A stretch of 32,000 bases of DNA from Pseudoalteromonas tetraodonis (GTDB lineage Bacteria; Pseudomonadota; Gammaproteobacteria; Enterobacterales; Alteromonadaceae), in the NCBI RefSeq assembly GCF_002310835.1, contig NZ_CP011041.1, forward strand, positions 2,130,001-2,162,000. The letters run 5' to 3'. The translations under genes were made by a program, and so were the position numbers. Positions within the stretch are counted from its first letter, which is position 1, and the number at the start of each line of letters is the position of its first letter. Below the pieces are notes generated by a model. It was not told the DNA's origin and did no database searches. It saw only the letters and a program-made list of their open reading frames with translations. Below, piece by piece: positions 3,276 through 20,261 of the stretch.

Positions 3276-3572
3276 ATCCGTAAATAAAAAACGTTCATTT
3301 AGCACGATTGTTAATACTAAACCTCAATTATCAGGCTTATAAGAATAAGCTCAATGATTAATTCGTATTCCAGTGTTACTTTTTTGTTTATTCAAAGTAG
3401 GTGTCTAACTTTGGCACCTTTCATTTTTCATACCTTGTAAATCAATTCAAATAAAATCTGTTTATTCGTGATTTGCCGTAATTATTGGAACATTTTCAAA
3501 GTATTAATTTCACAAGCGTCAATCCTTTAGTTATGCTGTTGAGCATTATGAAATTTTATTACGAGAATTCCT

Positions 3573-5483
3573 ATGCTACCAATACTTCGTATCTTGTTAA
3601 TTGAGCAAGATCCAGTCACCTTACAAGAGCTTTCAACGAATCTGTCGAAGACCATTGTCAATTTTGAGCGAGATGATATTCATATCGATATTATTGAGCG
3701 TCTTGAGCTAAAACAAGCGTTGGACATTGTAGAGGAAGATGGTGATATTCAGGCTGTAGTGCTTAGCTGGGATTTGCAAAATAAGGTTGGCGAACGCACT
3801 TATAGTCGCTTTATCGAGCAGTTAAAAGGGATCCGCCTTGAGCTGCCTGTTTATGTTATTGGCGATGATACGAAGGGGCTAGAAATCGTTAATGAGTCGG
3901 AGGAGATTGAGTCTTTCTTTTTTAAAGATGAGGTAATTTCTGATCCTGAAGCAATTTTAGGCTATATGATCAACGATTTCGATGACCGCTCAGAGACCCC
4001 ATTTTGGACTGCGTACCGCCGCTATGTTGGCGAAGCAAACGATTCTTGGCATACACCAGGTCACAGTGGCGGCTCGAGCTTTAGAAATTCTCCTTATATT
4101 AAAGATTTTTATCAGTTTTATGGTCGTAATGTGTTTGTGGGCGATCTGTCGGTTTCTGTTGATTCGTTAGGATCATTATCAGATAGCACTAATACCATTG
4201 GCCGTGCGCAAGAGTCAGCAGCGGCGACGTTTGAAGTCAAGCATACCTATTTCGTTACCAATGGGTCGTCTACCTCAAATAAAATCATCTTGCAGACATT
4301 GCTGCGTAAGGGCGATAAAGTGATCATCGACCGCAATTGTCATAAATCTGTGCACTATGGCATTTTGCAATCAGCGAGTTTACCTGTTTATTTGTCGAGT
4401 ATTTTAAATCCTAAATATGGCATTTTTGCGCCGCCGTCGTTGGCCGATATAAAACAAGCGATAGAACAAAATACCGATGCAAAATTACTGGTTCTTACCG
4501 GTTGTACTTACGATGGCCTACTGAGCGATCTGAAACAGGTGGTCGATTTTGCCCATCAACATGGTATTAAAGTATTTATTGACGAGGCATGGTTTGCTTA
4601 CTCGCTGTTTCATCCAAGCCTACGATACTATTCCGCCATTCATGCTGGCGCTGACTACGTCACTCATTCGGCGCATAAAGTGGTATCGGCGTTTTCTCAA
4701 GCATCTTATATTCATGTTAACGACCCTGATTTCGATGCTGATTTCTTTCGTGAGATTTACAGTATTTACGCCAGTACATCGCCAAAATATCAGCTTATCG
4801 CGTCGCTTGATGTGTGCCAAAAGCAATTAGAGATGGAAGGCTATAAGTTACTCAATGCTTTGTTGAACCATGTGGAAGAATTTAAACAACAGATGGCTTC
4901 ACTCAAACAAATTAAAGTACTAGGTAAGCAAGACTTTATGGAAATATTTCCGCACTTCAGTGGTGATAACATGGGTCACGATCCGCTAAAAATTCTCATC
5001 GACATAAGCGAATTACCTTATTCGTTAAAGGATATTCATAAATACCTGCTGGATGAAATTGGCCTAGAAATAGAAAAATACACCCACAGTACCATTTTGG
5101 TATTACTCACCCTTGGTGGCACGCGCTCAAAAATAATTCGTCTTTACAATGCGCTCAAAAAACTCGACAGCGGTAAAGTCAAGTTGTCAAAGTCGACGCG
5201 ACGATCTCGCTTGCCTGAGAATCTACCAGCCATAGACCTTGCGTGTATTCCAAGTGATGCTTTTTATGGCGAGCGCGAATCTGTGCCTATCGGTAAAAGT
5301 AACAACCGTATTTGTGCCGGTTTAGTTACCCCCTATCCGCCAGGTATTCCGCTTTTGGTGCCTGGCCAGCATATTACTGAGGAACATATAGAGTACCTTA
5401 AAGAGCTAGCAGGACAAGGTTTGACGATTCAAGGGAGTTTTGATGGTGAAATCTATGTTCTTAAGGGCAAAGTTAATAAGTAA
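3573..5483 (+). CDS. Fold-type I Orn/Lys/Arg decarboxylase (LdcC/SpeC/AdiA family) with N-terminal receiver-like wing domain
   Basis: 636 aa. The PLP-lysine motif VTHSAHKVVSAFSQASYIHV closely matches the E. coli LdcI motif THSTHKLLNALSQASYMHV. The N-terminal 130 aa are CheY-like (ILLIEQDP...VVLSWDL). Confidence 0.85.
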   Translation: MLPILRILLIEQDPVTLQELSTNLSKTIVNFERDDIHIDIIERLELKQALDIVEEDGDIQAVVLSWDLQNKVGERTYSRFIEQLKGIRLELPVYVIGDDTKGLEIVNESEEIESFFFKDEVISDPEAILGYMINDFDDRSETPFWTAYRRYVGEANDSWHTPGHSGGSSFRNSPYIKDFYQFYGRNVFVGDLSVSVDSLGSLSDSTNTIGRAQESAAATFEVKHTYFVTNGSSTSNKIILQTLLRKGDKVIIDRNCHKSVHYGILQSASLPVYLSSILNPKYGIFAPPSLADIKQAIEQNTDAKLLVLTGCTYDGLLSDLKQVVDFAHQHGIKVFIDEAWFAYSLFHPSLRYYSAIHAGADYVTHSAHKVVSAFSQASYIHVNDPDFDADFFREIYSIYASTSPKYQLIASLDVCQKQLEMEGYKLLNALLNHVEEFKQQMASLKQIKVLGKQDFMEIFPHFSGDNMGHDPLKILIDISELPYSLKDIHKYLLDEIGLEIEKYTHSTILVLLTLGGTRSKIIRLYNALKKLDSGKVKLSKSTRRSRLPENLPAIDLACIPSDAFYGERESVPIGKSNNRICAGLVTPYPPGIPLLVPGQHITEEHIEYLKELAGQGLTIQGSFDGEIYVLKGKVNK

Positions 5484-5517
5484 AGATATACTTTAATACA
5501 GTCGAACTCCTCATAAC

Positions 5518-5548
5518 TAAACAGCAATATCACATGATATTGCTGTTT
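5518..5548 (+). terminator. Hairpin downstream of the decarboxylase gene
   Basis: TAAACAGCAATATCACATGATATTGCTGTTTA forms a 13-bp stem. No clear U-tract follows. Confidence 0.4.
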
Positions 5549-5602
5549 AGTAGAGTAAAAAGCTGATCCTCACACTCCAAAAATAAATGAAGCCAGAATG
5601 CA

Positions 5603-6634
5603 ATGATACAATTGAAGAACAAAAAAGCGCTTACACTTCTGCGGATTGCAGCTCTCATTGTTACTCTTACTAGCATATACATTTTTGCCCCTTGGCAGTT
5701 TGCTTTATATTACTTTCACCCACTGCCCGCTAATGTTCAAGCACAAACACAAGAGGCTATTGAACAAGGAGTCGATGGCATTATTGTGTATATTCATAAA
5801 CAAGGACTGCAACCTGAATATTTTACAAATGGTTGGCATAATAGAGAGCACAAAATACCCGCTTACCCTAGTGCACTTTTTAAAATTGGCAGCATTCGAA
5901 AGTTATATGATGCAGCAGCTTTAACTAAACTTTCAGCCGCTGGACGTATTGATGTAGATAAAACACTGGCTGATTATCTTCCATCGTTAATTGGACGCAT
6001 TGAAAACGCAGATAAAATAACACTACGAATGATGGTAAAACACAAAAGTGGCATACCCAATTACACAGACACTGATAATTTCGATTGGTCAATCACCTAC
6101 CCTGACCCACTTGCATTAGTACTCGATAAACCCGCTGATTTTAGCCCTGATGCTGACTATGGCTATTCTAATACCAATTATTTGTTGCTGCGAAAAATTA
6201 TGTCTAACGTGCTGGGTTATGATCATAACCAATATATTAAAGATGAAATTTTAACGCCTCTGGGCCTAACGCATACGTTTTCATCTGTACATGAAATCAA
6301 TTTAGTAGATTTGATGAGTGGTTACTACGTAGGTTATGAGAATGATTTTAAAGCACTCGATCAAGGCTATGTGGCAACCGCACAAGATGTAGGCGACTTT
6401 ATTTTTGCTTTAAACAAAGGCACTTTTTTCGACGAACAAGAGCAAGCTTTGTATGCATCACTTTATAAGTATGAACACACAGGTTGGGTATTAGGGTATT
6501 CAAGCATTGCTCGTTATTATAAAGATATCGATACAGTCGTTGTGCAGTTTATAAATACTAATGGCGATGATACTGTGATGCTCACAGAAATAATTTATAA
6601 TCGGATTATTGATATTTTAACTGCGCAGCAATAG
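5603..6634 (+). CDS. Serine hydrolase of the beta-lactamase/PBP (class C-like) family, membrane-anchored or secreted
   Basis: 343 aa with an N-terminal hydrophobic anchor. Three family motifs are present in order: S-x-x-K (SIRK), Y-x-N (YSN) and H/K-T-G (HTG). Confidence 0.75.
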   Translation: MIQLKNKKALTLLRIAALIVTLTSIYIFAPWQFALYYFHPLPANVQAQTQEAIEQGVDGIIVYIHKQGLQPEYFTNGWHNREHKIPAYPSALFKIGSIRKLYDAAALTKLSAAGRIDVDKTLADYLPSLIGRIENADKITLRMMVKHKSGIPNYTDTDNFDWSITYPDPLALVLDKPADFSPDADYGYSNTNYLLLRKIMSNVLGYDHNQYIKDEILTPLGLTHTFSSVHEINLVDLMSGYYVGYENDFKALDQGYVATAQDVGDFIFALNKGTFFDEQEQALYASLYKYEHTGWVLGYSSIARYYKDIDTVVVQFINTNGDDTVMLTEIIYNRIIDILTAQQ

Positions 6635-6688
6635 TATTTAAAACTAGCTGCGTTATAAAAATTTATATGAATTTTAAAGAGGATTTAA

Positions 6689-7090
6689 ATGCGTTTACTA
6701 CACACCATGTTACGGGTTGCAGATCTAGATAAATCAATTGCGTTTTATACTCAAGTACTTGGTATGAAAGAGTTACGCCGTGCTGATAACGAAGAGTACC
6801 GCTATACCCTCGCCTTTGTAGGCTACGGTGATGAAACTGACACAACAGTGCTTGAACTGACCTATAACTGGGATACCGACAGCTATGATTTAGGCAATGC
6901 CTATGGTCATATCGCGATTGAGTTTGATGATATCTATAAAGCCTGTGCTGATATCAAGGCCGCTGGCGGTAACGTAAGCCGTGAACCAGGTCCAGTAAAG
7001 GGTGGCACAACAGAAATAGCGTTTGTAAAAGATCCAGATGGCTACTCAATTGAACTTATTCAGAAAAAAGAAAATATGAATAAATTTTAG
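6689..7090 (+). CDS. gloA: Lactoylglutathione lyase (glyoxalase I)
   Basis: 133 aa. [30 protein letters not shown]...[10 protein letters not shown]...[25 protein letters not shown] is colinear with E. coli GloA. SD AGAGGA lies upstream. Confidence 0.95.
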
Positions 7091-7156
7091 TAAATATATT
7101 TAATAGGTTTACTAAGCGGCTTTTTAATTATTTAAGCTTAACTCTGATACAATTTT

Positions 7157-7182
7157 AAAAAAGGTGCTATATGCACCTTTTT
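7157..7182. terminator. Bidirectional intrinsic terminator between convergent gloA and the traR-like gene
   Basis: AAAAAAGGTGC-TATAT-GCACCTTTTT. A GC-containing stem is flanked by an A-run and a T-run. Confidence 0.7.
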
Positions 7183-7447
7183 ATCGTAATTGACTATCTT
7201 TACTGCCACGCCGATTAAGCCCTTTAGAAAGTGCGCCTTTACCTTCTAGTTCAACTTGGCAGCTTACACAATACTTAACACCTGGTAACGCAAGTCTTCG
7301 TGCCTGTGGTATTGGTTCATCACATTCTTCACATAGCTCGGCACTGGCTCCAGAAACTAAGTTACTTCTAGCATATTGCACAGCATCATTAACGCTGGCG
7401 TCGATTTGATCTTGAATTGCACCATCGCGTGCCCATCCACTTGCCAT
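7181..7447 (-). CDS. DksA/TraR-family C4 zinc-finger protein
   Basis: 88 aa with CEECDEPIPQARRLALPGVKYCVSCQ (C-x2-C-x17-C-x2-C). Strong SD GGAGG lies 5 nt upstream of the ATG. Confidence 0.8.
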   Translation of the reverse strand: MASGWARDGAIQDQIDASVNDAVQYARSNLVSGASAELCEECDEPIPQARRLALPGVKYCVSCQVELEGKGALSKGLNRRGSKDSQLR

Positions 7448-7674
7448 ATAACCTCCTATTTATTTGGACGTTTATATGTAACCTAACATAGGTGAAGTTT
7501 ATTTAAGCTGAATATAAGAAAGGGAAAGATGCTAATAAAATTTAGGAGTTATTATATAAAATATTTAATTTTGAGATTTTAACTTCACTGAATAATTCTG
7601 AGGTAATAATAGAAATGCAGATAAATTGATTTTAGATATTTTTAGTAAAAGCTGTCTTACTAATAAATAGTAGG

Positions 7675-7745
7675 TGGCGTATCAAGAGATTTTCACTCTT
7701 TTTAAAGTTGCGGATAGAGAGTGCGCTGTCACACTGCTGTATATA
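7675..7745 (-). pseudogene. Decayed tRNA-Glu unit at the promoter-distal end of the Glu array
   Basis: TGGCGTATCAAGAGATTTTCAC aligns with the TGGCGTCCCCAAGGGGATTCGAAC 3' end of the Glu genes. It is preceded by a spacer-like AATAAATAGTAGG (compare TTTAAAATAGGTAAG). No cloverleaf is left. Confidence 0.35.
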
Positions 7746-7763: not shown

Positions 7764-7839
7764 TGGCGTCCCCAAGGGGATTCGAACCCCTGTTACCGCC
7801 GTGAAAGGGCGGTGTCCTAGGCCTCTAGACGATGGGGAC
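7764..7839 (-). tRNA. tRNA-Glu(UUC) copy 1
   Basis: Reverse complement reads GTCCCCATCGTCTAGAGGCCTAGGACACCGCCCTTTCACGGCGGTAACAGGGGTTCGAATCCCCTTGGGGACGCCA. Cloverleaf with anticodon loop CUUUCAC and encoded CCA. Near-identical to E. coli tRNA-Glu. Confidence 0.97.
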
Positions 7840-7932
7840 ACAGAATATGTGTCACTAGGACAACTGAATGGTTTGACTCGTTTCAGGCGAGCTGCTCAAT
7901 AACACTGCACTTCCCTATTTAAAATAGGTAAG

Positions 7933-8008
7933 TGGCGTCCCCAAGGGGATTCGAACCCCTGTTACCGCCGTGAAAGGGCGGTGTCCTAGGCCTCTAGACG
8001 ATGGGGAC
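7933..8008 (-). tRNA. tRNA-Glu(UUC) copy 2
   Basis: Same 76-nt sequence as 7764..7839, offset 169 bp. Confidence 0.97.
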
Positions 8009-8101
8009 ACAGAATATGTGTCACTAGGACAACTGAATGGTTTGACTCGTTTCAGGCGAGCTGCTCAATAACACTGCACTTCCCTATTTAAAATAGGTAA
8101 G

Positions 8102-8177
8102 TGGCGTCCCCAAGGGGATTCGAACCCCTGTTACCGCCGTGAAAGGGCGGTGTCCTAGGCCTCTAGACGATGGGGAC
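8102..8177 (-). tRNA. tRNA-Glu(UUC) copy 3
   Basis: Same 76-nt sequence, 169-bp period. Confidence 0.97.
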
Positions 8178-8270
8178 ACAGAATATGTGTCACTAGGACA
8201 ACTGAATGGTTTGACTCGTTTCAGGCGAGCTGCTCAATAACACTTCACTTCCCTATTTAAAACAAGTAAG

Positions 8271-8346
8271 TGGCGTCCCCAAGGGGATTCGAACCCCTGT
8301 TACCGCCGTGAAAGGGCGGTGTCCTAGGCCTCTAGACGATGGGGAC
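8271..8346 (-). tRNA. tRNA-Glu(UUC) copy 4
   Basis: Same 76-nt sequence, 169-bp period. Confidence 0.97.
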
Positions 8347-8439
8347 ACAGAATATGTGTCACTAGGACAACTGAATGGTTTGACTCGTTTCAGGCGAGCT
8401 GCTCAATAACACTGCACTTCCCTATTTAAAATAGGTAAG

Positions 8440-8515
8440 TGGCGTCCCCAAGGGGATTCGAACCCCTGTTACCGCCGTGAAAGGGCGGTGTCCTAGGCCT
8501 CTAGACGATGGGGAC
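8440..8515 (-). tRNA. tRNA-Glu(UUC) copy 5
   Basis: Same 76-nt sequence, 169-bp period. Confidence 0.97.
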
Positions 8516-8695
8516 GCAGAAATTGATTTGCAAATCACTGATTTGCTATTTCTGCGTAAGATGAGCCGAGCCTGCGAGGCGAATGGCATTATCTTCTCAG
8601 AAACATTTTCTGTGTCACTAGGACAACTGAATGGTTTGACTCGTTTCAGGCGAGCTGCTCAATAACACTGCACTTCCCTATTTAAAATAGGTAAG

Positions 8696-8771
8696 TGGCG
8701 TCCCCAAGGGGATTCGAACCCCTGTTACCGCCGTGAAAGGGCGGTGTCCTAGGCCTCTAGACGATGGGGAC
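8696..8771 (-). tRNA. tRNA-Glu(UUC) copy 6
   Basis: Same 76-nt sequence. Separated from copy 5 by an enlarged 180-nt spacer. Confidence 0.97.
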
Positions 8772-8864
8772 ACAGAATATGTGTCACTAGGACAACTGAA
8801 TGGTTCGACTCGTTTCAGGCGAGCTGCTTAATAACACTGCACTTCCCTATTTAAAATAGGTAAG

Positions 8865-8940
8865 TGGCGTCCCCAAGGGGATTCGAACCCCTGTTACCGC
8901 CGTGAAAGGGCGGTGTCCTAGGCCTCTAGACGATGGGGAC
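8865..8940 (-). tRNA. tRNA-Glu(UUC) copy 7
   Basis: Same 76-nt sequence, 169-bp period. Confidence 0.97.
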
Positions 8941-9083
8941 ACAGAATATGTGTCACTAGGACAATCGATTAGTTTTACTCACATCCTGAGCTTTAAGGTA
9001 ATGGCGTATAGTACAAATAAAGACTCGAGCTTTATGTGTTACGCTATTTTCTCGGTAAAACCGCCTTTAACTAAAAAGTTAAG

Positions 9084-9159
9084 TGGCGTCCCCAAGGGGA
9101 TTCGAACCCCTGTTACCGCCGTGAAAGGGCGGTGTCCTAGGCCTCTAGACGATGGGGAC
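9084..9159 (-). tRNA. tRNA-Glu(UUC) copy 8
   Basis: Same 76-nt sequence. A unique 143-nt spacer separates it from copy 7. Confidence 0.97.
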
Positions 9160-9195
9160 ACAGAAAACTGTTACCCTAGGACAAACACTAAAAAT

Positions 9196-9271
9196 TGGTG
9201 GAGCTATGCGGGATCGAACCGCAGACCTCTTCGCTGCCAGCGAAGCGCTCTCCCAGCTGAGCTATAGCCCC
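9196..9271 (-). tRNA. tRNA-Ala(GGC)
   Basis: Reverse complement reads GGGGCTATAGCTCAGCTGGGAGAGCGCTTCGCTGGCAGCGAAGAGGTCTGCGGTTCGATCCCGCATAGCTCCACCA. G3:U70 Ala identity pair, anticodon GGC, encoded CCA. First gene of the leftward operon. Confidence 0.97.
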
Positions 9272-9327
9272 AACTTATTCAATACGCTCGGTGATAATCA
9301 CGTCGTGTATCGCTTAGTGCGGGGCGC

Positions 9328-9356
9328 ATTCTATGCACCCCCCAAAATAAAGTCAA
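9328..9356 (-). promoter_or_regulatory. Sigma70 promoter of the Ala-Glu tRNA operon
   Basis: The minus strand reads TTGACT-17 nt-TAGAAT followed by the GC-rich discriminator GCGCCCCGC. It lies about 55 nt upstream of tRNA-Ala and resembles the rrn P1-type TATAATGCGCCACC architecture. Confidence 0.7.
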
Positions 9357-9864
9357 CAGTTTTTTATGCGACATTATTTAAATGGTTTAAATTTCAACAA
9401 ACTGGCTATCATACGTGCTAAAAAACAGATTTTCATACTAATTTAGATGTCATGTTGCGCTTTACGTTGTTGTACTCGCCACATGTATACGACTAAGTAC
9501 CCTATTCAACCGATAATATGAGTTTGAATATGATTTAAAGGGTATACATTTATATGCAAATTAGCTTGGTGCTGTTTTACTACTAAAAAAGCGCTGTTCA
9601 TTCGCATGTTAAACTTTAAGTAACTTTTTATTATCCGCTAATTTGTATCACGCAATACAATTATTGAAAGTTAGCCTTTTATTACATAAATATTTTATTG
9701 TTTATCCGACCACTAATGACATCTATTTAGTCTACGCCGCCGACTTTAAATAAACATTAAGCTTAACAATTGTTCGTTTAATATTAGTTTGTTGATAAAG
9801 TGAACACCGTTCGCACTGTATTGTTTATAAAAGCTTCACTCAGCACATTTTTATCATTCAAGTG

Positions 9865-9892
9865 TTGACACATTTGCAACTCTATCTATAAT
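9865..9892 (+). promoter_or_regulatory. Sigma70 promoter of the tRNA-Val array
   Basis: Consensus TTGACA (9865-9870)-16 nt-TATAAT (9887-9892) followed by the discriminator AGCGCCCC. AT-rich UP-like sequence lies upstream. It is about 40 nt upstream of the first Val gene. Confidence 0.8.
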
Positions 9893-9934
9893 AGCGCCCC
9901 ACAACAACGCAGCAATGTGGTGTTGTTTAGATGC

Positions 9935-10010
9935 GGGTGATTAGCTCAGTTGGGAGAGCATCGCCCTTACAAGGCGAGGGTCACTGGTTCAAGTCCAGTA
10001 TCACCCACCA
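9935..10010 (+). tRNA. tRNA-Val(UAC), type A, acceptor fully paired
   Basis: GGGTGATTAGCTCAGTTGGGAGAGCATCGCCCTTACAAGGCGAGGGTCACTGGTTCAAGTCCAGTATCACCCACCA. Cloverleaf with anticodon loop CUUACAA and encoded CCA. Acceptor pairs GGGTGAT with ATCACCC. Confidence 0.97.
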
Positions 10011-10042
10011 CATTTTAATGTGTCGTATCTAAGATTCTATAT

Positions 10043-10127
10043 GGGCGTTAGCTCAGTTAGAAAAAAGAGAGCTCACCGTTATTTACAAGTAACGGCAAGG
10101 TTCACTGGTTAAAGTCCAGTACTACTA
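10043..10127 (+). pseudogene. tRNA-Val-like degenerate element P1
   Basis: GGGCGTTAGCTCAG... has an enlarged D-loop lacking GG, an extended anticodon stem CCGTTA/TAACGG around TTTACAAG, and T-loop TTAAAGT. There is no 3' acceptor strand, which is replaced by an AT hairpin. Confidence 0.6.
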
Positions 10128-10158
10128 AAATTTAATAGTAGCGTTTGAATTTATATGT

Positions 10159-10234
10159 GGGTGATTAGCTCAGTTGGGAGAGCATCGCCCTTACAAGGCG
10201 AGGGTCACTGGTTCAAGTCCAGTATCACCCACCA
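10159..10234 (+). tRNA. tRNA-Val(UAC), type A
   Basis: Identical to 9935..10010. Confidence 0.97.
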
Positions 10235-10286
10235 CATATAAAACCTATTGTTATATTAATAGTGATATGTATTAAAATTGTAATAT

Positions 10287-10374
10287 GGGTCGTTAGCTCA
10301 GTTACAAGAAATGAGAGCATCACCGCTATTTACAAGTAACGGCGAAGTTCACTGGTTAAAGTCCAGTACTATTT
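10287..10374 (+). pseudogene. tRNA-Val-like degenerate element P2
   Basis: GGGTCGTTAGCTCAGTTACAAGAAATGAGAGCATCACCGCTATTTACAAGTAACGGCGAAGTTCACTGGTTAAAGTCCAGT followed by the ACTATT..AATAGT hairpin. No strand complementary to GGGTCGT is present. Confidence 0.6.
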
Positions 10375-10404
10375 ATTTTAATAGTAGCGTTTTAATTTAT
10401 ATGT

Positions 10405-10480
10405 GGGTGATTAGCTCAGTTGGGAGAGCATCGCCCTTACAAGGCGAGGGTCACTGGTTCAAGTCCAGTATCACCCACCA
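10405..10480 (+). tRNA. tRNA-Val(UAC), type A
   Basis: Identical to 9935..10010, 246 bp after the previous Val gene. Confidence 0.97.
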
Positions 10481-10532
10481 CATATAAAATCTATTATTAT
10501 GTTAATAGTGATTTGTATTAAAATTGTAATAT

Positions 10533-10620
10533 GGGTCGTTAGCTCAGTTACAAGAAATGAGAGCATCACCGCTATTTACAAGTAACGGCGAAGTTCACTG
10601 GTTAAAGTCCAGTACTATTT
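10533..10620 (+). pseudogene. tRNA-Val-like degenerate element P3
   Basis: Identical to P2, 246 bp downstream. Confidence 0.6.
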
Positions 10621-10650
10621 ATTTTAATAGTAGCGTTTTAATTTATATGT

Positions 10651-10726
10651 GGGTGATTAGCTCAGTTGGGAGAGCATCGCCCTTACAAGGCGAGGGTCAC
10701 TGGTTCAAGTCCAGTACGACCCACCA
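10651..10726 (+). tRNA. tRNA-Val(UAC), hybrid: type A 5' strand with type B 3' strand
   Basis: Val body and anticodon are intact, but the acceptor is GGGTGAT vs ACGACCC. This gives G5:G68 and A6:C67 mismatches. CCA is encoded. Confidence 0.75.
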
Positions 10727-10761
10727 TTCTTTGAATGGTGCATATTACAAGATATCTAAAT

Positions 10762-10847
10762 GGGTGATTAGCTCAGTTAGATAAAGAGAGCATCACCGCT
10801 ATTTACAAGTAACGGCGAGGTTCACTGGTTGAAGTCCAGTACTATTT
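10762..10847 (+). pseudogene. tRNA-Val-like degenerate element P4
   Basis: Same architecture as P1-P3 but with a GGGTGAT 5' end. D-loop AGTTAGATAAAGA, T-loop TTGAAGT. The 3' acceptor is replaced by the ACTATT..AATAGT hairpin. Confidence 0.55.
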
Positions 10848-10875
10848 TTATAATAGTTTGTTTTGATTTATATGT

Positions 10876-10951
10876 GGGTGATTAGCTCAGTTGGGAGAGC
10901 ATCGCCCTTACAAGGCGAGGGTCACTGGTTCAAGTCCAGTATCACCCACCA
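10876..10951 (+). tRNA. tRNA-Val(UAC), type A
   Basis: Identical to 9935..10010. Confidence 0.97.
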
Positions 10952-11000
10952 CATATAAAACCTATTATTATGTTAATAGTCATGTGTAAATTTGTAATAT

Positions 11001-11076
11001 GGGTCGTTAGCTCAGTTGGGAGAGCATCGCCCTTACAAGGCGAGGGTCACTGGTTCAAGTCCAGTATCACCCACCA
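11001..11076 (+). tRNA. tRNA-Val(UAC), hybrid acceptor (B 5' strand / A 3' strand), unit 1 of 17
   Basis: GGGTCGTTAGCTCAGTTGGGAGAGCATCGCCCTTACAAGGCGAGGGTCACTGGTTCAAGTCCAGTATCACCCACCA. The body is identical to type A. The acceptor has a C5:C68 mismatch and a G6:U67 wobble. Confidence 0.85.
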
Positions 11077-11125
11077 CATATAAAACCTATTATTATGTTA
11101 ATAGTCATGTGTAAATTTGTAATAT

Positions 11126-11201
11126 GGGTCGTTAGCTCAGTTGGGAGAGCATCGCCCTTACAAGGCGAGGGTCACTGGTTCAAGTCCAGTATCACCCACC
11201 A
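11126..11201 (+). tRNA. tRNA-Val(UAC), hybrid acceptor, unit 2
   Basis: Identical to 11001..11076, 125-bp period. Confidence 0.85.
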
Positions 11202-11250
11202 CATATAAAACCTATTATTATGTTAATAGTCATGTGTAAATTTGTAATAT

Positions 11251-11326
11251 GGGTCGTTAGCTCAGTTGGGAGAGCATCGCCCTTACAAGGCGAGGGTCAC
11301 TGGTTCAAGTCCAGTATCACCCACCA
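11251..11326 (+). tRNA. tRNA-Val(UAC), hybrid acceptor, unit 3
   Basis: Identical to 11001..11076, 125-bp period. Confidence 0.85.
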
Positions 11327-11375
11327 CATATAAAACCTATTATTATGTTAATAGTCATGTGTAAATTTGTAATAT

Positions 11376-11451
11376 GGGTCGTTAGCTCAGTTGGGAGAGC
11401 ATCGCCCTTACAAGGCGAGGGTCACTGGTTCAAGTCCAGTATCACCCACCA
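11376..11451 (+). tRNA. tRNA-Val(UAC), hybrid acceptor, unit 4
   Basis: Identical to 11001..11076, 125-bp period. Confidence 0.85.
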
Positions 11452-11500
11452 CATATAAAACCTATTATTATGTTAATAGTCATGTGTAAATTTGTAATAT

Positions 11501-11576
11501 GGGTCGTTAGCTCAGTTGGGAGAGCATCGCCCTTACAAGGCGAGGGTCACTGGTTCAAGTCCAGTATCACCCACCA
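11501..11576 (+). tRNA. tRNA-Val(UAC), hybrid acceptor, unit 5
   Basis: Identical to 11001..11076, 125-bp period. Confidence 0.85.
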
Positions 11577-11625
11577 CATATAAAACCTATTATTATGTTA
11601 ATAGTCATGTGTAAATTTGTAATAT

Positions 11626-11701
11626 GGGTCGTTAGCTCAGTTGGGAGAGCATCGCCCTTACAAGGCGAGGGTCACTGGTTCAAGTCCAGTATCACCCACC
11701 A
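11626..11701 (+). tRNA. tRNA-Val(UAC), hybrid acceptor, unit 6
   Basis: Identical to 11001..11076, 125-bp period. Confidence 0.85.
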
Positions 11702-11750
11702 CATATAAAACCTATTATTATGTTAATAGTCATGTGTAAATTTGTAATAT

Positions 11751-11826
11751 GGGTCGTTAGCTCAGTTGGGAGAGCATCGCCCTTACAAGGCGAGGGTCAC
11801 TGGTTCAAGTCCAGTATCACCCACCA
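11751..11826 (+). tRNA. tRNA-Val(UAC), hybrid acceptor, unit 7
   Basis: Identical to 11001..11076, 125-bp period. Confidence 0.85.
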
Positions 11827-11875
11827 CATATAAAACCTATTATTATGTTAATAGTCATGTGTAAATTTGTAATAT

Positions 11876-11951
11876 GGGTCGTTAGCTCAGTTGGGAGAGC
11901 ATCGCCCTTACAAGGCGAGGGTCACTGGTTCAAGTCCAGTATCACCCACCA
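11876..11951 (+). tRNA. tRNA-Val(UAC), hybrid acceptor, unit 8
   Basis: Identical to 11001..11076, 125-bp period. Confidence 0.85.
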
Positions 11952-12000
11952 CATATAAAACCTATTATTATGTTAATAGTCATGTGTAAATTTGTAATAT

Positions 12001-12076
12001 GGGTCGTTAGCTCAGTTGGGAGAGCATCGCCCTTACAAGGCGAGGGTCACTGGTTCAAGTCCAGTATCACCCACCA
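12001..12076 (+). tRNA. tRNA-Val(UAC), hybrid acceptor, unit 9
   Basis: Identical to 11001..11076, 125-bp period. Confidence 0.85.
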
Positions 12077-12125
12077 CATATAAAACCTATTATTATGTTA
12101 ATAGTCATGTGTAAATTTGTAATAT

Positions 12126-12201
12126 GGGTCGTTAGCTCAGTTGGGAGAGCATCGCCCTTACAAGGCGAGGGTCACTGGTTCAAGTCCAGTATCACCCACC
12201 A
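12126..12201 (+). tRNA. tRNA-Val(UAC), hybrid acceptor, unit 10
   Basis: Identical to 11001..11076, 125-bp period. Confidence 0.85.
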
Positions 12202-12250
12202 CATATAAAACCTATTATTATGTTAATAGTCATGTGTAAATTTGTAATAT

Positions 12251-12326
12251 GGGTCGTTAGCTCAGTTGGGAGAGCATCGCCCTTACAAGGCGAGGGTCAC
12301 TGGTTCAAGTCCAGTATCACCCACCA
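12251..12326 (+). tRNA. tRNA-Val(UAC), hybrid acceptor, unit 11
   Basis: Identical to 11001..11076, 125-bp period. Confidence 0.85.
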
Positions 12327-12375
12327 CATATAAAACCTATTATTATGTTAATAGTCATGTGTAAATTTGTAATAT

Positions 12376-12451
12376 GGGTCGTTAGCTCAGTTGGGAGAGC
12401 ATCGCCCTTACAAGGCGAGGGTCACTGGTTCAAGTCCAGTATCACCCACCA
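12376..12451 (+). tRNA. tRNA-Val(UAC), hybrid acceptor, unit 12
   Basis: Identical to 11001..11076, 125-bp period. Confidence 0.85.
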
Positions 12452-12500
12452 CATATAAAACCTATTATTATGTTAATAGTCATGTGTAAATTTGTAATAT

Positions 12501-12576
12501 GGGTCGTTAGCTCAGTTGGGAGAGCATCGCCCTTACAAGGCGAGGGTCACTGGTTCAAGTCCAGTATCACCCACCA
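12501..12576 (+). tRNA. tRNA-Val(UAC), hybrid acceptor, unit 13
   Basis: Identical to 11001..11076, 125-bp period. Confidence 0.85.
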
Positions 12577-12625
12577 CATATAAAACCTATTATTATGTTA
12601 ATAGTCATGTGTAAATTTGTAATAT

Positions 12626-12701
12626 GGGTCGTTAGCTCAGTTGGGAGAGCATCGCCCTTACAAGGCGAGGGTCACTGGTTCAAGTCCAGTATCACCCACC
12701 A
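12626..12701 (+). tRNA. tRNA-Val(UAC), hybrid acceptor, unit 14
   Basis: Identical to 11001..11076, 125-bp period. Confidence 0.85.
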
Positions 12702-12750
12702 CATATAAAACCTATTATTATGTTAATAGTCATGTGTAAATTTGTAATAT

Positions 12751-12826
12751 GGGTCGTTAGCTCAGTTGGGAGAGCATCGCCCTTACAAGGCGAGGGTCAC
12801 TGGTTCAAGTCCAGTATCACCCACCA
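12751..12826 (+). tRNA. tRNA-Val(UAC), hybrid acceptor, unit 15
   Basis: Identical to 11001..11076, 125-bp period. Confidence 0.85.
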
Positions 12827-12875
12827 CATATAAAACCTATTATTATGTTAATAGTCATGTGTAAATTTGTAATAT

Positions 12876-12951
12876 GGGTCGTTAGCTCAGTTGGGAGAGC
12901 ATCGCCCTTACAAGGCGAGGGTCACTGGTTCAAGTCCAGTATCACCCACCA
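12876..12951 (+). tRNA. tRNA-Val(UAC), hybrid acceptor, unit 16
   Basis: Identical to 11001..11076, 125-bp period. Confidence 0.85.
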
Positions 12952-13000
12952 CATATAAAACCTATTATTATGTTAATAGTCATGTGTAAATTTGTAATAT

Positions 13001-13076
13001 GGGTCGTTAGCTCAGTTGGGAGAGCATCGCCCTTACAAGGCGAGGGTCACTGGTTCAAGTCCAGTATCACCCACCA
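13001..13076 (+). tRNA. tRNA-Val(UAC), hybrid acceptor, unit 17
   Basis: Identical to 11001..11076. The following spacer diverges (ATGCTAATAGTCATGTTTTAAAGTTG). Confidence 0.85.
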
Positions 13077-13126
13077 CATATAAAACCTATTATTATGCTA
13101 ATAGTCATGTTTTAAAGTTGTAATAT

Positions 13127-13202
13127 GGGTCGTTAGCTCAGTTGGGAGAGCATCGCCCTTACAAGGCGAGGGTCACTGGTTCAAGTCCAGTACGACCCAC
13201 CA
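13127..13202 (+). tRNA. tRNA-Val(UAC), type B, acceptor fully paired
   Basis: GGGTCGT...ACGACCCACCA. The body is identical to the other Val genes and the acceptor pairs perfectly. Last gene of the array, followed by the CACCATT-CTTTG-AATGGTG hairpin. Confidence 0.95.
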
Positions 13203-13237
13203 TTCTTTGAATGGTGCATATTACAAAAATCTAAATC

Positions 13238-13385
13238 CTCCAGTATCACCTTCCATTTTAATATTCATTATCCTCCACTCCTTTAGTTCACGTTCAGTAT
13301 TAATTGCCATTTAGAAATTCGTTATCAAGCAATTCTTCGGTTTCAAAAGATCAGTATTACCAATCACATGCTAAAAACCTATCTT
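13238..13385 (+). pseudogene. Three decayed tRNA-Val 3'-half remnants downstream of the array
   Basis: TCCAGTATCACCTTCCATTTTAAT (about 13238), GTTCACGTTCAGTATTAATTGCCATTT (about 13285) and TCAGTATTACCAATCACATGCTAAAAACCTAT (about 13351) align with GTTCAAGTCCAGTATCACCCACCACAT(A/T)TAAAACCTAT. Confidence 0.5.
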
Positions 13386-13443
13386 CCGAGTTTTATTATC
13401 TCCAAAATCATTTTGTTTAAACTTACTTTATTACGCGTGCTAT

Positions 13444-13466
13444 CCATTTACTTTAAATGGGTTTTT
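13444..13466 (+). terminator. Possible intrinsic terminator of the Val operon
   Basis: CCATTTA-CTT-TAAATGG followed by GTTTTT. The stem is AT-rich, so it is weak. Confidence 0.4.
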
Positions 13467-13607
13467 AGCTCTTTTAAGATAAAAATATAAACCTTTAGAA
13501 TTAATTTGCTTAATAAGCTCTCATCTTCGAAGCGAATCTTTAAATTACCTTGTAAGCGTCTAAACTGTTGATTATAGTCTGTGTTAAATTCAATTACGCT
13601 TAAGCCA

Positions 13608-15239
13608 ATGTCTAAAAATATTTTTAATGAAGCAAAAATACTGATTGTAGAGGAGCAGCCACTTGCTCAAAGCTACATGAAACAGTCGCTCGAAAAAATT
13701 GGCTTTGGACATATGCGTTTTGCAGATCATGCTCTAGCGGCAAAAGAACAATGCTTACATGAAGAATTTGACTTGGTAATTTGCTCTTTTAATCTAAGCA
13801 AACGCCAAGATGGCTACCAGCTTTATGAAGAATTACGCGCTAAAGCATTAATAAAACACTCTACTGGGTTTATTTTTACATCTGCGGAAACTAGCGGAGA
13901 GTTAGTTCACAGTGTGTTAGAACTTCAACCCGATGACTTTTTAGTAAAACCTTTCTCTGTACAAGAGCTAAGAGTGCGCATAGAGCGTATTCTCAAACGC
14001 AAAAGCGACTTAAAAGCTATATACACTTTAATTGATGATGATAACCAGTCTAAAGCATTAAAACAAATTAATGCTCAGCTTGATAAAAGTAATAAATACA
14101 GCCCTATTCTGCTTAGATTAAAAGGTAATATTTTACTGGCGCTAAAACAAAACCAAGAAGCGAAAGACTTTTTTAAATCAGTTTTGAATATTCAAAAGTT
14201 TGCATGGGCAAAAGTAGGATTGGTAGAAGCCTTAATTGCTAACAATGAGCATATTTTGGCTCAACGCATGCTTAAAACAATGCTTGAACGTAATGAAACT
14301 CGACTAGTTGCATTAGACTTATTAGGGCGTTTAGAAATAAAATTAAACCAGTTTGAGTTAGCTCAAGAGTTTTTAAGTCAAGCAGCCCATATTGCCCCGC
14401 GTAATATAGACCGTCAAAAGTCACTGAACAGCGTATCGCTCATTAATAGAGATTATGAAACCAGCTACTTAACTCAAAAGGATATTGCCACTTTTGCTAA
14501 GTACTCTATGCATGATAGCCCAGACATTTATTTAAATGCCGCTCGTGCTGGGATTGATTTTGCACTAACCACAGATCAAACTGACCAAATAAACAGAATT
14601 TCCCGTCAAACAAATAAATATATTAATGAGCTAAAAACACAATTCCCAACCAGTAATGCACAAACTCAAATCGATGTGCTCAATGCGCGCCTTTATTATT
14701 TAAAAGATGAACATAAAAAAGCGAAACAGTTGATTGAACAACTTGATGACAGCGATACTCAAATACGTTCAGTCGATGGTGCCCTAGATAAAGCAAAAGC
14801 ATTACATGAATTAGGTTTTCATCAGAAGGCGCAAGCGCTATTTAGCCAAATTATTGATCATTGCGAACGCCACCCAAGTAGGAGCGACGCGACGTACTTG
14901 CGTTATATACAGCAACAGCAAAGTGAAAGACGTGATATTAAAATGGGGCCGAAGGAACTTAACAATCATGCAGTTAAACAGTTTGAGCGTGGCCAGTTAA
15001 ATGTTGCTTTAGAGGCATTCAGCCAAGCCTTTAGGGTCATGCCACACAACCCAAGTATCGCACTTAACTTATTACAGTGTTTAGTGGATAAATCAAAAAA
15101 ACAGGGGGGCTCTTTCAATAGTCTATTGGCTCAAAAGTGCTTTAAACTATTAAAAAAATCACCCTTAGCAGAAGAGCAATCAGAGCGGTTCGATAAACTA
15201 CTTCAGATTGCTAAAGAAATGAAACTAGAGATTAGCTAG
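13608..15239 (+). CDS. Receiver-domain (atypical, Asp-less) plus TPR-repeat protein
   Basis: The ORF is open from GTG 13581. ATG 13608 (MSKNIF...) is an equally plausible start. The N-terminal 120 aa are CheY-like (ILIVEE...DLVICSFNLSKRQDG...FTSAE...LVKPF). The remainder is helical with TPR-like repeats. Confidence 0.8.
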   Translation: MSKNIFNEAKILIVEEQPLAQSYMKQSLEKIGFGHMRFADHALAAKEQCLHEEFDLVICSFNLSKRQDGYQLYEELRAKALIKHSTGFIFTSAETSGELVHSVLELQPDDFLVKPFSVQELRVRIERILKRKSDLKAIYTLIDDDNQSKALKQINAQLDKSNKYSPILLRLKGNILLALKQNQEAKDFFKSVLNIQKFAWAKVGLVEALIANNEHILAQRMLKTMLERNETRLVALDLLGRLEIKLNQFELAQEFLSQAAHIAPRNIDRQKSLNSVSLINRDYETSYLTQKDIATFAKYSMHDSPDIYLNAARAGIDFALTTDQTDQINRISRQTNKYINELKTQFPTSNAQTQIDVLNARLYYLKDEHKKAKQLIEQLDDSDTQIRSVDGALDKAKALHELGFHQKAQALFSQIIDHCERHPSRSDATYLRYIQQQQSERRDIKMGPKELNNHAVKQFERGQLNVALEAFSQAFRVMPHNPSIALNLLQCLVDKSKKQGGSFNSLLAQKCFKLLKKSPLAEEQSERFDKLLQIAKEMKLEIS

Positions 15240-15600
15240 GGCCTGTTGACATTTGCGGATTAAAATTTGTTCAAGCAAGGGACGATTTAATCGCGGCGTG
15301 AGGTTTGTAACCTAGTGGGCTCGATAACTGCTCCTGTGTTATTCTACTGGCTTACATCCATGTAAGAATAAGTAAAAGCCGAGCAAAGCTTCCGCGTCCT
15401 GCTCACGCCCCTTACCTACATCCATGTAGGCAACAAAGAGTTAATCGTCCCTTGGCAGAACCCTTTGGGCAGCGCCTGTTTGGAATTGATGCTCCGTTAT
15501 CGCCCATTTATGGGGAATAACCACACCACATAGGCTCTGCCTTGCCTAAATACCAAACAGACTGCTGCAAATTTAACCTTGAAAGGCCAACAGGCCCTAG
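15236..15600. mobile_element. MITE/ERIC-like 365-bp structured non-coding element with 13-bp perfect terminal inverted repeats
   Basis: CTAGGGCCTGTTG (15236-15248) is the exact reverse complement of CAACAGGCCCTAG (15588-15600). Nested internal inverted repeats are AAGGGACGATTTAA/TTAATCGTCCCTT and GGCGTGAG/CTCACGCC. There are two copies of the hairpin (C)TACATCCATGTA(G). No credible ORF. Confidence 0.6.
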
Positions 15601-16037
15601 AGCTTTTTCATTGCCAGTGCGTTTACACAGTAGCGCAAGCCGGAAGGAAGTGGGCCATCAGGGAAAATATGCCCTAAGTGCGCATCACACACATTACAAA
15701 CAACTTCAACTCGCTCCATGCCATGGCTGTTATCCATTACATACCCTATCGCATCAACCGTTGCAGGTTGTGTAAATGAAGGCCATCCTGTGCCACTATC
15801 AAACTTTTCATCCGCATCAAACAGTAGGTTGTCACAACACACACACACGTACTTTCCCGGTTCTAATAGTGTGCAACTAGTTGAACTATTTGGGCGCTCT
15901 GTGCCTTTTTTACGGGTCACGTAATATTGCTCTTCGTTTAACAGTTCACGCCATTGCTGATCTGTTTTAACTACTTTTTGAACCGGAGTCGGATTGCCAT
16001 GGTTGGCAAAATTAACAATATCATTCCATTTCAACAT
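15597..16037 (-). CDS. msrB: Peptide-methionine (R)-S-oxide reductase
   Basis: 146 aa. The GTERP motif, two CxxC pairs (CVCC, CNVC), GWPSF and RYCVNALAM (catalytic Cys) are typical of MsrB/SelR. Confidence 0.92.
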   Translation of the reverse strand: MLKWNDIVNFANHGNPTPVQKVVKTDQQWRELLNEEQYYVTRKKGTERPNSSTSCTLLEPGKYVCVCCDNLLFDADEKFDSGTGWPSFTQPATVDAIGYVMDNSHGMERVEVVCNVCDAHLGHIFPDGPLPSGLRYCVNALAMKKL

Positions 16038-16132
16038 AACAACCTCATTGCGTTATTAATTTGCTTCATACTAAGCCACAATCATGGGCTGACAGCCTAT
16101 CATTACGTCTGTGGCTAATACCACGATCAACG

Positions 16133-16573
16133 CTATTTAAACACTATACGGTGCTTCTCTGTTGCTGTAAGTATACGGCTTATATAAGCGTGTAATTGAG
16201 CTTGACTACCAGGAATACTCACGCTTAATTGCCTGTCATTATTACTATGCACTATTAGCTCATCGTCTTTTATCTCTATTGACTCAATATTGCTGATGAC
16301 TAACCAATGCGGGCCATTCTTTTTATCAAACAACCCGGTTAAACTAAAAACAAACAAATGCTGCGCATCACGCTGAATAAAGTTACGCAGCGGGTTACGC
16401 ATTTTAAATAACGGCGTTAACCGGTAACAGCACGAACAAAATACCACTATCCACAATAGCAATATCCCTTTAAACCAAATATGTTCGCCTAATGATAAAA
16501 AATAGCCAACGCAGATAAGAATCAGCCCTATAAAGGCCACTACTTGCGCTATTTTTTTATTAATAGTGTGCAT
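16133..16573 (-). CDS. Small membrane protein of unknown function (2 TM + soluble C-terminal domain)
   Basis: 146 aa with two N-terminal hydrophobic helices. Co-directional with and 6 bp from the preceding ORF. Confidence 0.55.
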   Translation of the reverse strand: MHTINKKIAQVVAFIGLILICVGYFLSLGEHIWFKGILLLWIVVFCSCCYRLTPLFKMRNPLRNFIQRDAQHLFVFSLTGLFDKKNGPHWLVISNIESIEIKDDELIVHSNNDRQLSVSIPGSQAQLHAYISRILTATEKHRIVFK

Positions 16574-16579
16574 AATCTC

Positions 16580-17076
16580 TTACTTTTTATCGGTTGCTTT
16601 TTCTGTCGGCTCGGGCCAATCACTAAAAAAAACACTTAAATAACGACTTTTTGCCAAATACCACAATACCCACAATACAATCACCATTTGTATGGCTAAA
16701 AACAGTGAAAAGCGATAATGGCTATGTGCCGCCTGGATACTTAACCACGACAAGTCTATTAGCGCGCAAGTAATAAGTGGCCAACGCATGTATCGCCAAA
16801 CACGCGCTAACCGTTTCGTAGCTTGATGCGAGTCTCTGGGTCTGCGTAAACAAAACAAAATAGTGGGTACAATTGCCACAGCACCAATCGCTATGGCAAT
16901 AAAAAAATCATTTTTTGATTTAAAAAACAATGACATTAGATCAAGTTCAGGACGACGGCTCAGCGCGGCAATCACCCAAATAAAATAGGCCCGCAGTAAC
17001 ACTAAAATACTCAAATGAAACGCTATTGGCGTACGATAGCTGCCATATTTATCCCAGTATTCAGGTCCATAACGGC

Positions 17077-17080
<4 letters not shown>
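16580..17080 (-). CDS. Polytopic membrane protein of unknown function
   Basis: 166 aa with about 4 TM segments. Its start overlaps the upstream ORF stop by 4 nt. Confidence 0.6.
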
Positions 17081-19491
<2,411 letters not shown>

Positions 19492-19514
19492 ACAAAATTT
19501 AACTTATGCGTATG

Positions 19515-20261
19515 TTACGCAGAAAATACGCGAACCTGTTCAACATATTGACGAATACGCTCTACCGTCATTACATTTCGCTCTGCATCTAAAATATCGG
19601 CACCAAATTCATCCGCTATTTTTTTAGCGGCGCTGTGCAGCATGTTAAACGCGGCTAAACCGTCGCCATCGCATGGCAGAGTCATAAATAAGCTCACCCC
19701 AGCGGTGCTAAATTGTTCCATATTATCAATATCGAACGTGCCTGGGTTATACATATTCACCAACCTAAATAACACCGGCCCTTGGCCTGCTGGGTCTAGG
19801 TGGCGATTAAAAAAGCCTTCTTCTGAATATTTAAAACCTAGCATGTTAACAGCAGGCAGTAATTTACTGCCTTGCATAGTGAGCCCTTCTGGCATTTGAA
19901 TATGCACAATGACAAAGTCTGCAACGTCTTTAGGGGCATCTTGTTGTGTGTCTGCGGCCTCTTCTGTTACCACTTCAAGGTCATCCTCGATAGGTGTATT
20001 TACTGGGCTTTCGTCTATCTGTGGTTCATCAGCGCTGAAGTTTAACTCACTCATTTGTGGCTCTTCTCGTTGCGCTAACGTTGGCTCTTGTGGCTCAGTA
20101 TGTACAGATGAAGGCTGCTGTTCTTGAACAGGCTCGACTCGCTCATTTGCAGGGAGTTCAGCATTCTCTTTTTTTCTTACTGACCACAAACCGTGTATTA
20201 ATAAGCCACCAATGACAAATACACTGATCACAATTAAAACCCATCTTAATTCTTCGGCCAT
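19515..20261 (-). CDS. zipA: Cell division protein ZipA
   Basis: The N-terminal TM anchor MAEELRWVLIVISVFVIGGLLIHGLWSVRKKE parallels E. coli ZipA. It has an acidic/P-Q-rich linker and a C-terminal FtsZ-binding domain. Conserved position upstream of ligA. Confidence 0.9.
   Translation of the reverse strand: MAEELRWVLIVISVFVIGGLLIHGLWSVRKKENAELPANERVEPVQEQQPSSVHTEPQEPTLAQREEPQMSELNFSADEPQIDESPVNTPIEDDLEVVTEEAADTQQDAPKDVADFVIVHIQMPEGLTMQGSKLLPAVNMLGFKYSEEGFFNRHLDPAGQGPVLFRLVNMYNPGTFDIDNMEQFSTAGVSLFMTLPCDGDGLAAFNMLHSAAKKIADEFGADILDAERNVMTVERIRQYVEQVRVFSA

Follow-up and report, generated by a model that had tools for sequence, protein, structure and literature searches.

A recent tandem amplification as the probable source of seventeen identical tRNA-Val(UAC) genes with mismatched acceptor stems in Pseudoalteromonas tetraodonis

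A 32,000-nt stretch of the Pseudoalteromonas tetraodonis genome (assembly GCF_002310835.1, contig NZ_CP011041.1, positions 2,130,001 to 2,162,000; hereafter the window) carries a long run of tRNA-Val(UAC) genes, most of which have an imperfectly paired acceptor stem. Gene calling with ARAGORN placed 32 tRNA genes in the window, all of them within 5.5 kb (7764-13202), and the 23 tRNA-Val(UAC) genes among them lie on the plus strand in a 3.3-kb block (9935-13202). A scripted gene-by-gene comparison revealed that a 58-nt interior (positions 8-65) is the same in all 23 genes, extending to 60 nt with the shared positions 7 and 66, and that the differences between genes are confined to positions 5-6 and 67-68. 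Four combinations of 5' and 3' acceptor strands occur, all on the plus strand, which we refer to as types A, B, H and R:

Type A: GGGTGAT/ATCACCC, fully paired, at 9935, 10159, 10405 and 10876
Type B: GGGTCGT/ACGACCC, fully paired, at 13127
Type H: GGGTCGT/ATCACCC, with a C5·C68 mismatch and a G6·U67 wobble, 17 copies in 11001-13076
Type R: GGGTGAT/ACGACCC, with G5·G68 and A6·C67 oppositions, at 10651

From 5' to 3' the genes follow the order A A A R A, seventeen copies of H, and B, and the block is laid out as follows:

9935-10010, 10159-10234 and 10405-10480, plus strand: three type-A tRNA-Val(UAC) genes, alternating with degenerate tRNA-like remnants
10651-10726, plus strand: type-R chimera with the 5' strand of A and the 3' strand of B
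10876-10951, plus strand: type-A gene with a fully paired stem, the left border of the amplified tract
10882-13097, plus strand: perfect period-125 tract of 2216 nt, 17.7 periods, zero mismatches
11001-13076, plus strand: 17 identical type-H genes with the 5' strand of B and the 3' strand of A, starting at 11001+125k
13077-13126, plus strand: divergent last spacer (sp2), 50 nt
13127-13202, plus strand: type-B gene with a fully paired stem, closing the operon and bounding the array on its right

Types A and B differ by a compensated double change (G5:C68 and A6:U67 in A versus C5:G68 and G6:C67 in B), and R is the reciprocal chimera to H. In H the stem reads G1:C72, G2:C71, G3:C70, U4:A69, the C5·C68 mismatch, the G6·U67 wobble and U7:A66. 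An earlier reading of the letters of this DNA (the sequence-only reading) had reported this mismatch and wobble in all 17 genes, described H as a hybrid of two fully paired types present at the locus and as the commonest allele there, located both parental types at the positions given above, and counted a perfect acceptor helix in five of the 23 genes. Re-reading by script upheld each of these points, including the count of fully Watson-Crick stems (5/23), and added R at 10651, the 23rd gene, which had been left undescribed. The scoring of each copy that the same reading had asked for gave, with the Rfam tRNA model RF00005, 72.1 bits for A, 71.9 for B, 64.1 for H and 60.6 for R, against a gathering score of 29.

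Tandem Repeats Finder assigned the repeat a period of 125 nt, 18.6 copies and 99% matches, and chance would not come close to producing a perfect tandem array of 2.2 kb. The claim that seventeen 125-bp units are base-for-base identical stands for all 17 genes and fails for the 17th spacer: full identity over 125 nt holds for 16 of the 17 units, and three substitutions plus a 1-nt insertion set sp2 apart from the other array spacers. Ahead of the first H gene, by contrast with sp2, stands a spacer of the same sequence as the repeated one (sp1). A spurious 37-aa open reading frame (ORF) spanning sp1 and H returned no record on look-up.

For comparison, we took the orthologous locus from about 20 contigs by exact matches to four flanking proteins (the response regulator query was the 543-aa start, the 552-aa reading giving no match) and classified every Val gene. 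Some 13 other assemblies with 95-100% flank identity hold two to seven Val genes, and R genes and H arrays are absent from all of them. The arrangements, with our own L handles where needed, are these:

AAAABAB: CP076084, CP152390, CP162514, two JGI contigs and L029; gap-free, 95-99.9% flank identity
AAAAAAB: CP087995 and L042; gap-free, 95-99.9% flank identity
AAAB: KK070023 and L028; gap-free, 95-99.9% flank identity
AAABAB and AAAAB: two scaffolds with N gaps

By alignment, the window is collinear with the AAAABAB strains up to the third A gene; thereafter R stands where those strains have A4-spacer-B5, and A, the 17 H genes and B stand where they have A6-spacer-B7. The array is probably very recent because close relatives, with flanks 98.6-100% identical, lack it, which bears out very recent amplification, one of the three causes that the sequence-only reading had offered for the zero divergence. 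As a separate small deletion polymorphism, the complete genome CP152390 (L013/L025/L036) lacks the degenerate unit between B5 and A6, leaving a spacing of 111 versus 227 nt. The two flanks of the window also have different nearest relatives: the left flank (3301-7700) is closest to L011 (99.98%, one mismatch in 4400 nt), whose right flank is only 98.7% identical, while the right flank (13251-20000) is 100% identical to L003, L006 and L010. This difference suggests that strains recombined here, with a break point in or close to the tRNA arrays.

The arrangement becomes simple when the block is divided not by genes but by cassettes, defined as the DNA between two invariant interiors, i.e. the 3' acceptor strand of one gene, the spacer and the 5' acceptor strand of the next. 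Three such cassettes account for 10651-13202:

Cassette X: ATCACCC-ACCA-sp1-GGGTCGT, 67 nt
Cassette Y: ACGACCC-ACCA-trailer-remnant-GGGTGAT, 167 nt
Cassette Z: ATCACCC-ACCA-sp2-GGGTCGT, 68 nt

The locus of L029, whose flanks are 98.8% identical to those of the window, reads a·X·Y·Z·b', in which all junctions are matched and give A B A B. Cassettes X and Z of the window are exactly those of L029, sp2 being the A6-B7 spacer of that locus, and Y differs at 3 of 167 positions. Assembled in the order a·Y·X^17·Z·b', the window's own cassettes rebuild 10651-13202 letter for letter (2552/2552 nt). The junction a·Y, of deletion type, is R; Y·X is the A gene at 10876; sixteen X·X junctions and one X·Z junction are the 17 H genes; and Z·b' is B. 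The tract 10882-13097 accordingly consists of 17 copies of X, each with its 49-nt spacer, linked via the invariant 58-nt interior. The structure of the array, its strain specificity and its exact rebuild from a relative's cassettes are thus demonstrated at the level of the assembled letters.

On this basis we propose, with a probability of roughly 80%, that the array is a recent tandem amplification by recombination or slippage at the shared interiors that created H at each junction. The identical interiors would serve as portable recombination sites and the intervening DNA as an exchangeable cassette. From a presumed ancestral order X·Y·Z, as it persists in L029, recombination or replication slippage at the interiors could have reordered and amplified the cassettes to give Y·X^17·Z. 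Either X was lost from the first module and gained in the second before expansion, or X·Y was duplicated and two deletions preceded the expansion. At the molecular level we infer one of two plausible routes, either unequal exchange that depends on RecA and uses the 60 nt of identity, or slippage without RecA from one repeat to another 125 nt away. Any tandem duplication that ends inside adjacent A and B genes would leave an H gene at its junction, and the mismatch recurs at every junction because the repeat boundaries fall within two genes set apart by a compensated double substitution. The hybrid would therefore be the product of the amplification rather than its target, and the mismatch an automatic by-product of where the boundaries lie. 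The sequence-only reading was right that H is recombinant, while its view of H as a variant that was then amplified is reversed by the cassette reconstruction, in which the duplication boundaries make H. In keeping with tandem amplification, the locus displays head-to-tail repeats with chimeric junctions, a copy-number polymorphism with the progenitor arrangement in L029, and a deletion-type junction in R.

Several points weigh against this proposal. The change from X·Y·Z to Y·X^n·Z takes at least two or three exchanges in addition to the amplification, and the exact copy number of 17 rests on one assembly. Moreover, the draft GCA_030159815.1 (L003/L032, BSNE01000002.1 1-300), whose right flank is 100% identical over 8.8 kb and whose contig begins inside the array, reads remnant-tail-GGGTGAT...ATCACCC-sp2-B and so has an A gene, not H, before sp2; it is either a sister clone lacking the array or a short-read chimera at a contig end. 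The amplification may have been neutral or selected.

H genes are not confined to the window. Among the species-representative genomes scanned, exact H occurs in only one, P. haloplanktis ATCC 14393 (L021), where two copies lie 113 nt apart and the spacer is of unrelated sequence, and it also occurs in two metagenome contigs, L022 (TARA, one H gene) and L023. The latter reads A-H-B, its two spacers being identical to each other and different from those of the window, and its flank is 95-96% identical to the window; it has the form of the simplest, one-step duplication product in another lineage, although it may be a longer array collapsed from short reads. The response-regulator genes of L021 and L022 are only about 85% identical. 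In both, H is the last intact Val gene and is followed by decayed units. Four or five progressively decayed tRNA-Val units can be made out there (900-1450 in L021, 240-880 in L022); in these the 5' halves are scrambled but the T arm, the ATCACCC 3' strand and CCA are preserved, a visible birth-and-death series. The occurrence of H in three other lineages argues against sequencing error and for H genes being at least tolerated, and, judged from these contigs, H junctions arise repeatedly, or persist, in Pseudoalteromonas.

Whether H could act as a tRNA can be approached from its identity elements and its predicted stability. H keeps the anticodon UAC with A35 and C36, as well as A73, G20, G45 and an encoded CCA; A35, C36, the discriminator A73 and the minor elements G20 and G45 are listed as valine identity elements in a 2023 review (PMC9976931). 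According to the same review, transplanting valine identity required a regular A-form acceptor helix, and valylation suffers when a G·U pair stands at 3:70 or 4:69. The earlier statement that ValRS needs a regular acceptor helix agrees with that work, which concerns G·U at 3:70 and 4:69; we found no published data on the effect of a 5:68 mismatch on ValRS. Neither H nor R has a regular 7-bp acceptor helix. A register shift does not re-pair H on inspection, as a bulged C5 gives G6:C68 but leaves U7·U67 and consumes U8. We used fixed-cloverleaf and duplex energies, since an unconstrained minimum-free-energy fold misses the cloverleaf even for type A at 37 °C. The predicted acceptor duplex amounts to -9.8 kcal/mol for A, -11.2 for B, -4.8 for H and -5.4 for R, a loss of about 5-6 kcal/mol for H, and the cloverleaf at 37 °C to -28.2, -29.6, -22.1 and -21.6 kcal/mol, respectively. 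Between 4 and 37 °C the H cloverleaf is predicted to be 3-5 kcal/mol less stable than the minimum-energy fold. For the acceptor stem the predicted pairing probability does not exceed 0.1 in H and is 0 in R, compared with values of 0.5-0.98 in A and B. Tertiary contacts and modifications lie outside these models, which point to weakening, not inactivity. With regard to pseudogene status, H and R thus combine intact interiors and scores well above threshold with acceptor stems that are predicted to be unstable. By this estimate H would be weakened yet possibly still usable as a tRNA, with an uncertain share in translation, and R is probably defective. Of the 429 Val codons in the window ORFs, 90% are GUA, GUU or GUG, and tRNA-Val(UAC) is probably the main valine decoder.

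These properties leave room for different views of what the 17 copies are for. That H and R go unused in translation, as dead junction products or as decoys or sources of fragments that counter a phage nuclease or a toxin aimed at tRNAs, is a tentative possibility: it fits the low predicted pairing of both stems and a locus littered with decayed tRNA-Val remnants, where dead copies are evidently tolerated, but the secondary-structure predictions have the limits just given. The decoy version is an idea without specific support, with no defence gene and no phage link: PADLOC had no match to a known defence protein among the 10 window ORFs scanned, and none of the viral contigs scanned carried any of the four acceptor variants. 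The suggestions of the sequence-only reading that the variant escapes a tRNA-targeting nuclease or serves high translational demand are speculative. Alternatively, H may work, if possibly weakly, and the 17 copies may have been selected to raise or restore the supply of tRNA-Val(UAC), with a rearrangement that cut the intact copies from seven to five, fast growth or cold growth as proposed triggers. We regard this as rather doubtful. In its favour, unselected tandem arrays are usually lost quickly, H retains its identity elements, its CCA and 64 bits, the codons named above dominate, and in L021 and L022 an undecayed H stands last among the intact genes despite decayed neighbours. High tRNA gene number in cold-adapted Pseudoalteromonas has also been linked to translation capacity (PMC3820357). 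Yet the hybrid forms without any selection, no other strain of the species has use for more than seven Val genes, and H bears the predicted energetic cost to stem and cloverleaf given above. It is improbable on present evidence that H is matured and valylated and that the array is a selected amplification of a weakened allele, offsetting lost intact copies or boosting supply for growth; if true, this would be a natural case of recombination between compensated paralogues that makes a hybrid-incompatible tRNA rescued by dosage. In a rarer version, H may have a non-translational role such as that of a decoy.

The remaining explanations concern the array itself. Its perfect identity across 2.2 kb could reflect an assembler or a polishing step that made or inflated a short A-(H)-B locus, and other assemblies do break or have N gaps right here (L003, L011, L017/L039, L031), as does the draft described above lack H before sp2. 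Nevertheless, long reads easily span 2.2 kb. The A and B borders are coherent, the odd last spacer is kept and an R junction stands apart upstream, all of which would be hard to misassemble. H junctions are, moreover, present in three unrelated assemblies, so that we consider an artefact quite unlikely as the source of the array or of its copy number, and likewise unlikely in the case of the H gene. An old array kept uniform by gene conversion, the cause of uniformity that the sequence-only reading had termed intense, is barely tenable. The tRNA interiors are indeed identical genus-wide, indicating strong homogenisation or selection, but the near-identical strains without the array, and the identity of the unselected spacers, led us to reject this explanation. 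Recent tandem amplification at the shared interiors is the reading we prefer.

The process we envisage is classical unequal exchange between tandem tRNA genes and not a new mechanism. At E. coli tyrT-tyrV, unequal recombination between adjacent near-identical tRNA genes yields strain-variable copy numbers and hybrid junction genes. The window resembles that system in using neighbouring tRNA genes as the homology for duplication and deletion with hybrid junctions; it differs in that the partners are distinguished by a compensated acceptor double change, so that the hybrids are mismatched, and in the expansion to 17 copies. Described tRNA arrays reportedly comprise many isotypes and are often acquired horizontally, unlike the present, nearly mono-isotype locus with its three isotypes (Val, Glu, Ala), conserved chromosomal site and local duplication. 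By the numerical definition of an array unit (Tran et al. 2016, PMC4758250), which asks for 20 or more tRNA genes at a density of no less than 2 per kb, the 32 genes in 7764-13202 form such a unit. Long runs of repeated tRNA genes in P. haloplanktis TAC125 and other psychrophiles, read as cold translation capacity (PMC3820357), provide a genus-level background of many tandem tRNA genes; unlike those runs as summarised there, the window has chimeric mismatched stems and an array that is strain-specific against relatives of about 99% identity. In Pseudomonas fluorescens SBW25, large-scale tandem duplications alter tRNA gene dosage (PMC7661048, PMC10954465), and there, as here, spontaneous tandem duplication is a fast and reversible way to change tRNA gene copy number. 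Those large duplications are described as containing intact genes, however, whereas the 125-nt unit of the window ends inside genes and makes each copy chimeric.

The locus offers a clean, fully reconstructable example of tandem tRNA operon evolution. Since the two acceptor strands of a gene sit in different exchangeable segments, paralogues that differ by a compensatory pair yield mismatched genes on reshuffling. Annotation-based tRNA gene counts consequently overstate functional dosage (23 called, five with an intact stem), and short-read assemblies break or collapse at the Val locus. If available, the strain would also provide a natural test of how a bacterium handles abundant acceptor-mismatched tRNA, in terms of quality control, ValRS tolerance and dosage compensation.

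Ahead of and between the Val genes lie further elements that bear on their expression and history:

9865-9892, plus strand: consensus sigma-70 promoter, TTGACA-16 nt-TATAAT, 12/12 matches, invariant in related strains
10043-10123 (psi-1), 10287-10369, 10533-10615 and 10762-10842, plus strand: degenerate tRNA-Val-like remnants
10722-10740, plus strand, with a second copy at 13198-13216: 8-bp hairpin CACCATTC-TTT-GAATGGTG overlapping the CCA end

We take 9865-9892 to be the single promoter because no other promoter-like plus-strand site was seen ahead of or inside the Val array, and the simplest reading is that all 23 Val genes would be co-transcribed from it. The hairpin starts within the CCA end of every gene with a B-type 3' strand, and in relatives it is found after every B gene, P. 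haloplanktis ATCC 14393 having the variant caccatgcttagaatggtg. It has no T tract and is thus not a textbook terminator, but it may act as an end-of-operon or processing signal. The four remnants interleave with the upstream A genes in units of about 225-246 nt. Each retains a B- or A-type beginning (5' acceptor and D arm) as well as a long hairpin whose loop contains TAC and another that resembles a T arm; the D region is enlarged and the 3' acceptor strand is missing. A permissive Rfam scan of 9900-11010 did not score them as tRNA even at E<=1, and the other matches in that interval were dismissed as chance antisense matches to tRNA. With their score lost and their sequence decayed, these psi units qualify as tRNA pseudogenes; they are nearly identical between strains and recognisable in P. 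haloplanktis ATCC 14393. They resemble decayed B-type genes, and the operon therefore seems to have been built of A-B dimers.

The surrounding genes form a synteny that recurs in many assemblies: a PLP-dependent decarboxylase, a beta-lactamase-fold protein, glyoxalase I and a DksA/TraR-type zinc-finger protein on the left, and a response regulator with TPR repeats, MsrB, LigA, ZipA and SMC on the right. P. haloplanktis ATCC 14393 holds the orthologous locus, with 76% amino-acid identity in the response regulator and MsrB. Divergent from the Val array, the minus strand of 7764-9271 carries eight identical tRNA-Glu(UUC) genes (169-nt period, two longer gaps) and one tRNA-Ala(GGC), with a promoter-like site at 9356-9328. 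Among gap-free relatives, those covering the Glu array in full have seven Glu copies, and other loci have lower or truncated counts, so that this copy number varies as well. In L019, L024 and L041 a gene for a 955-aa M16-family peptidase lies between the DksA/TraR-like gene and the Glu array, whereas the window and most relatives lack it.

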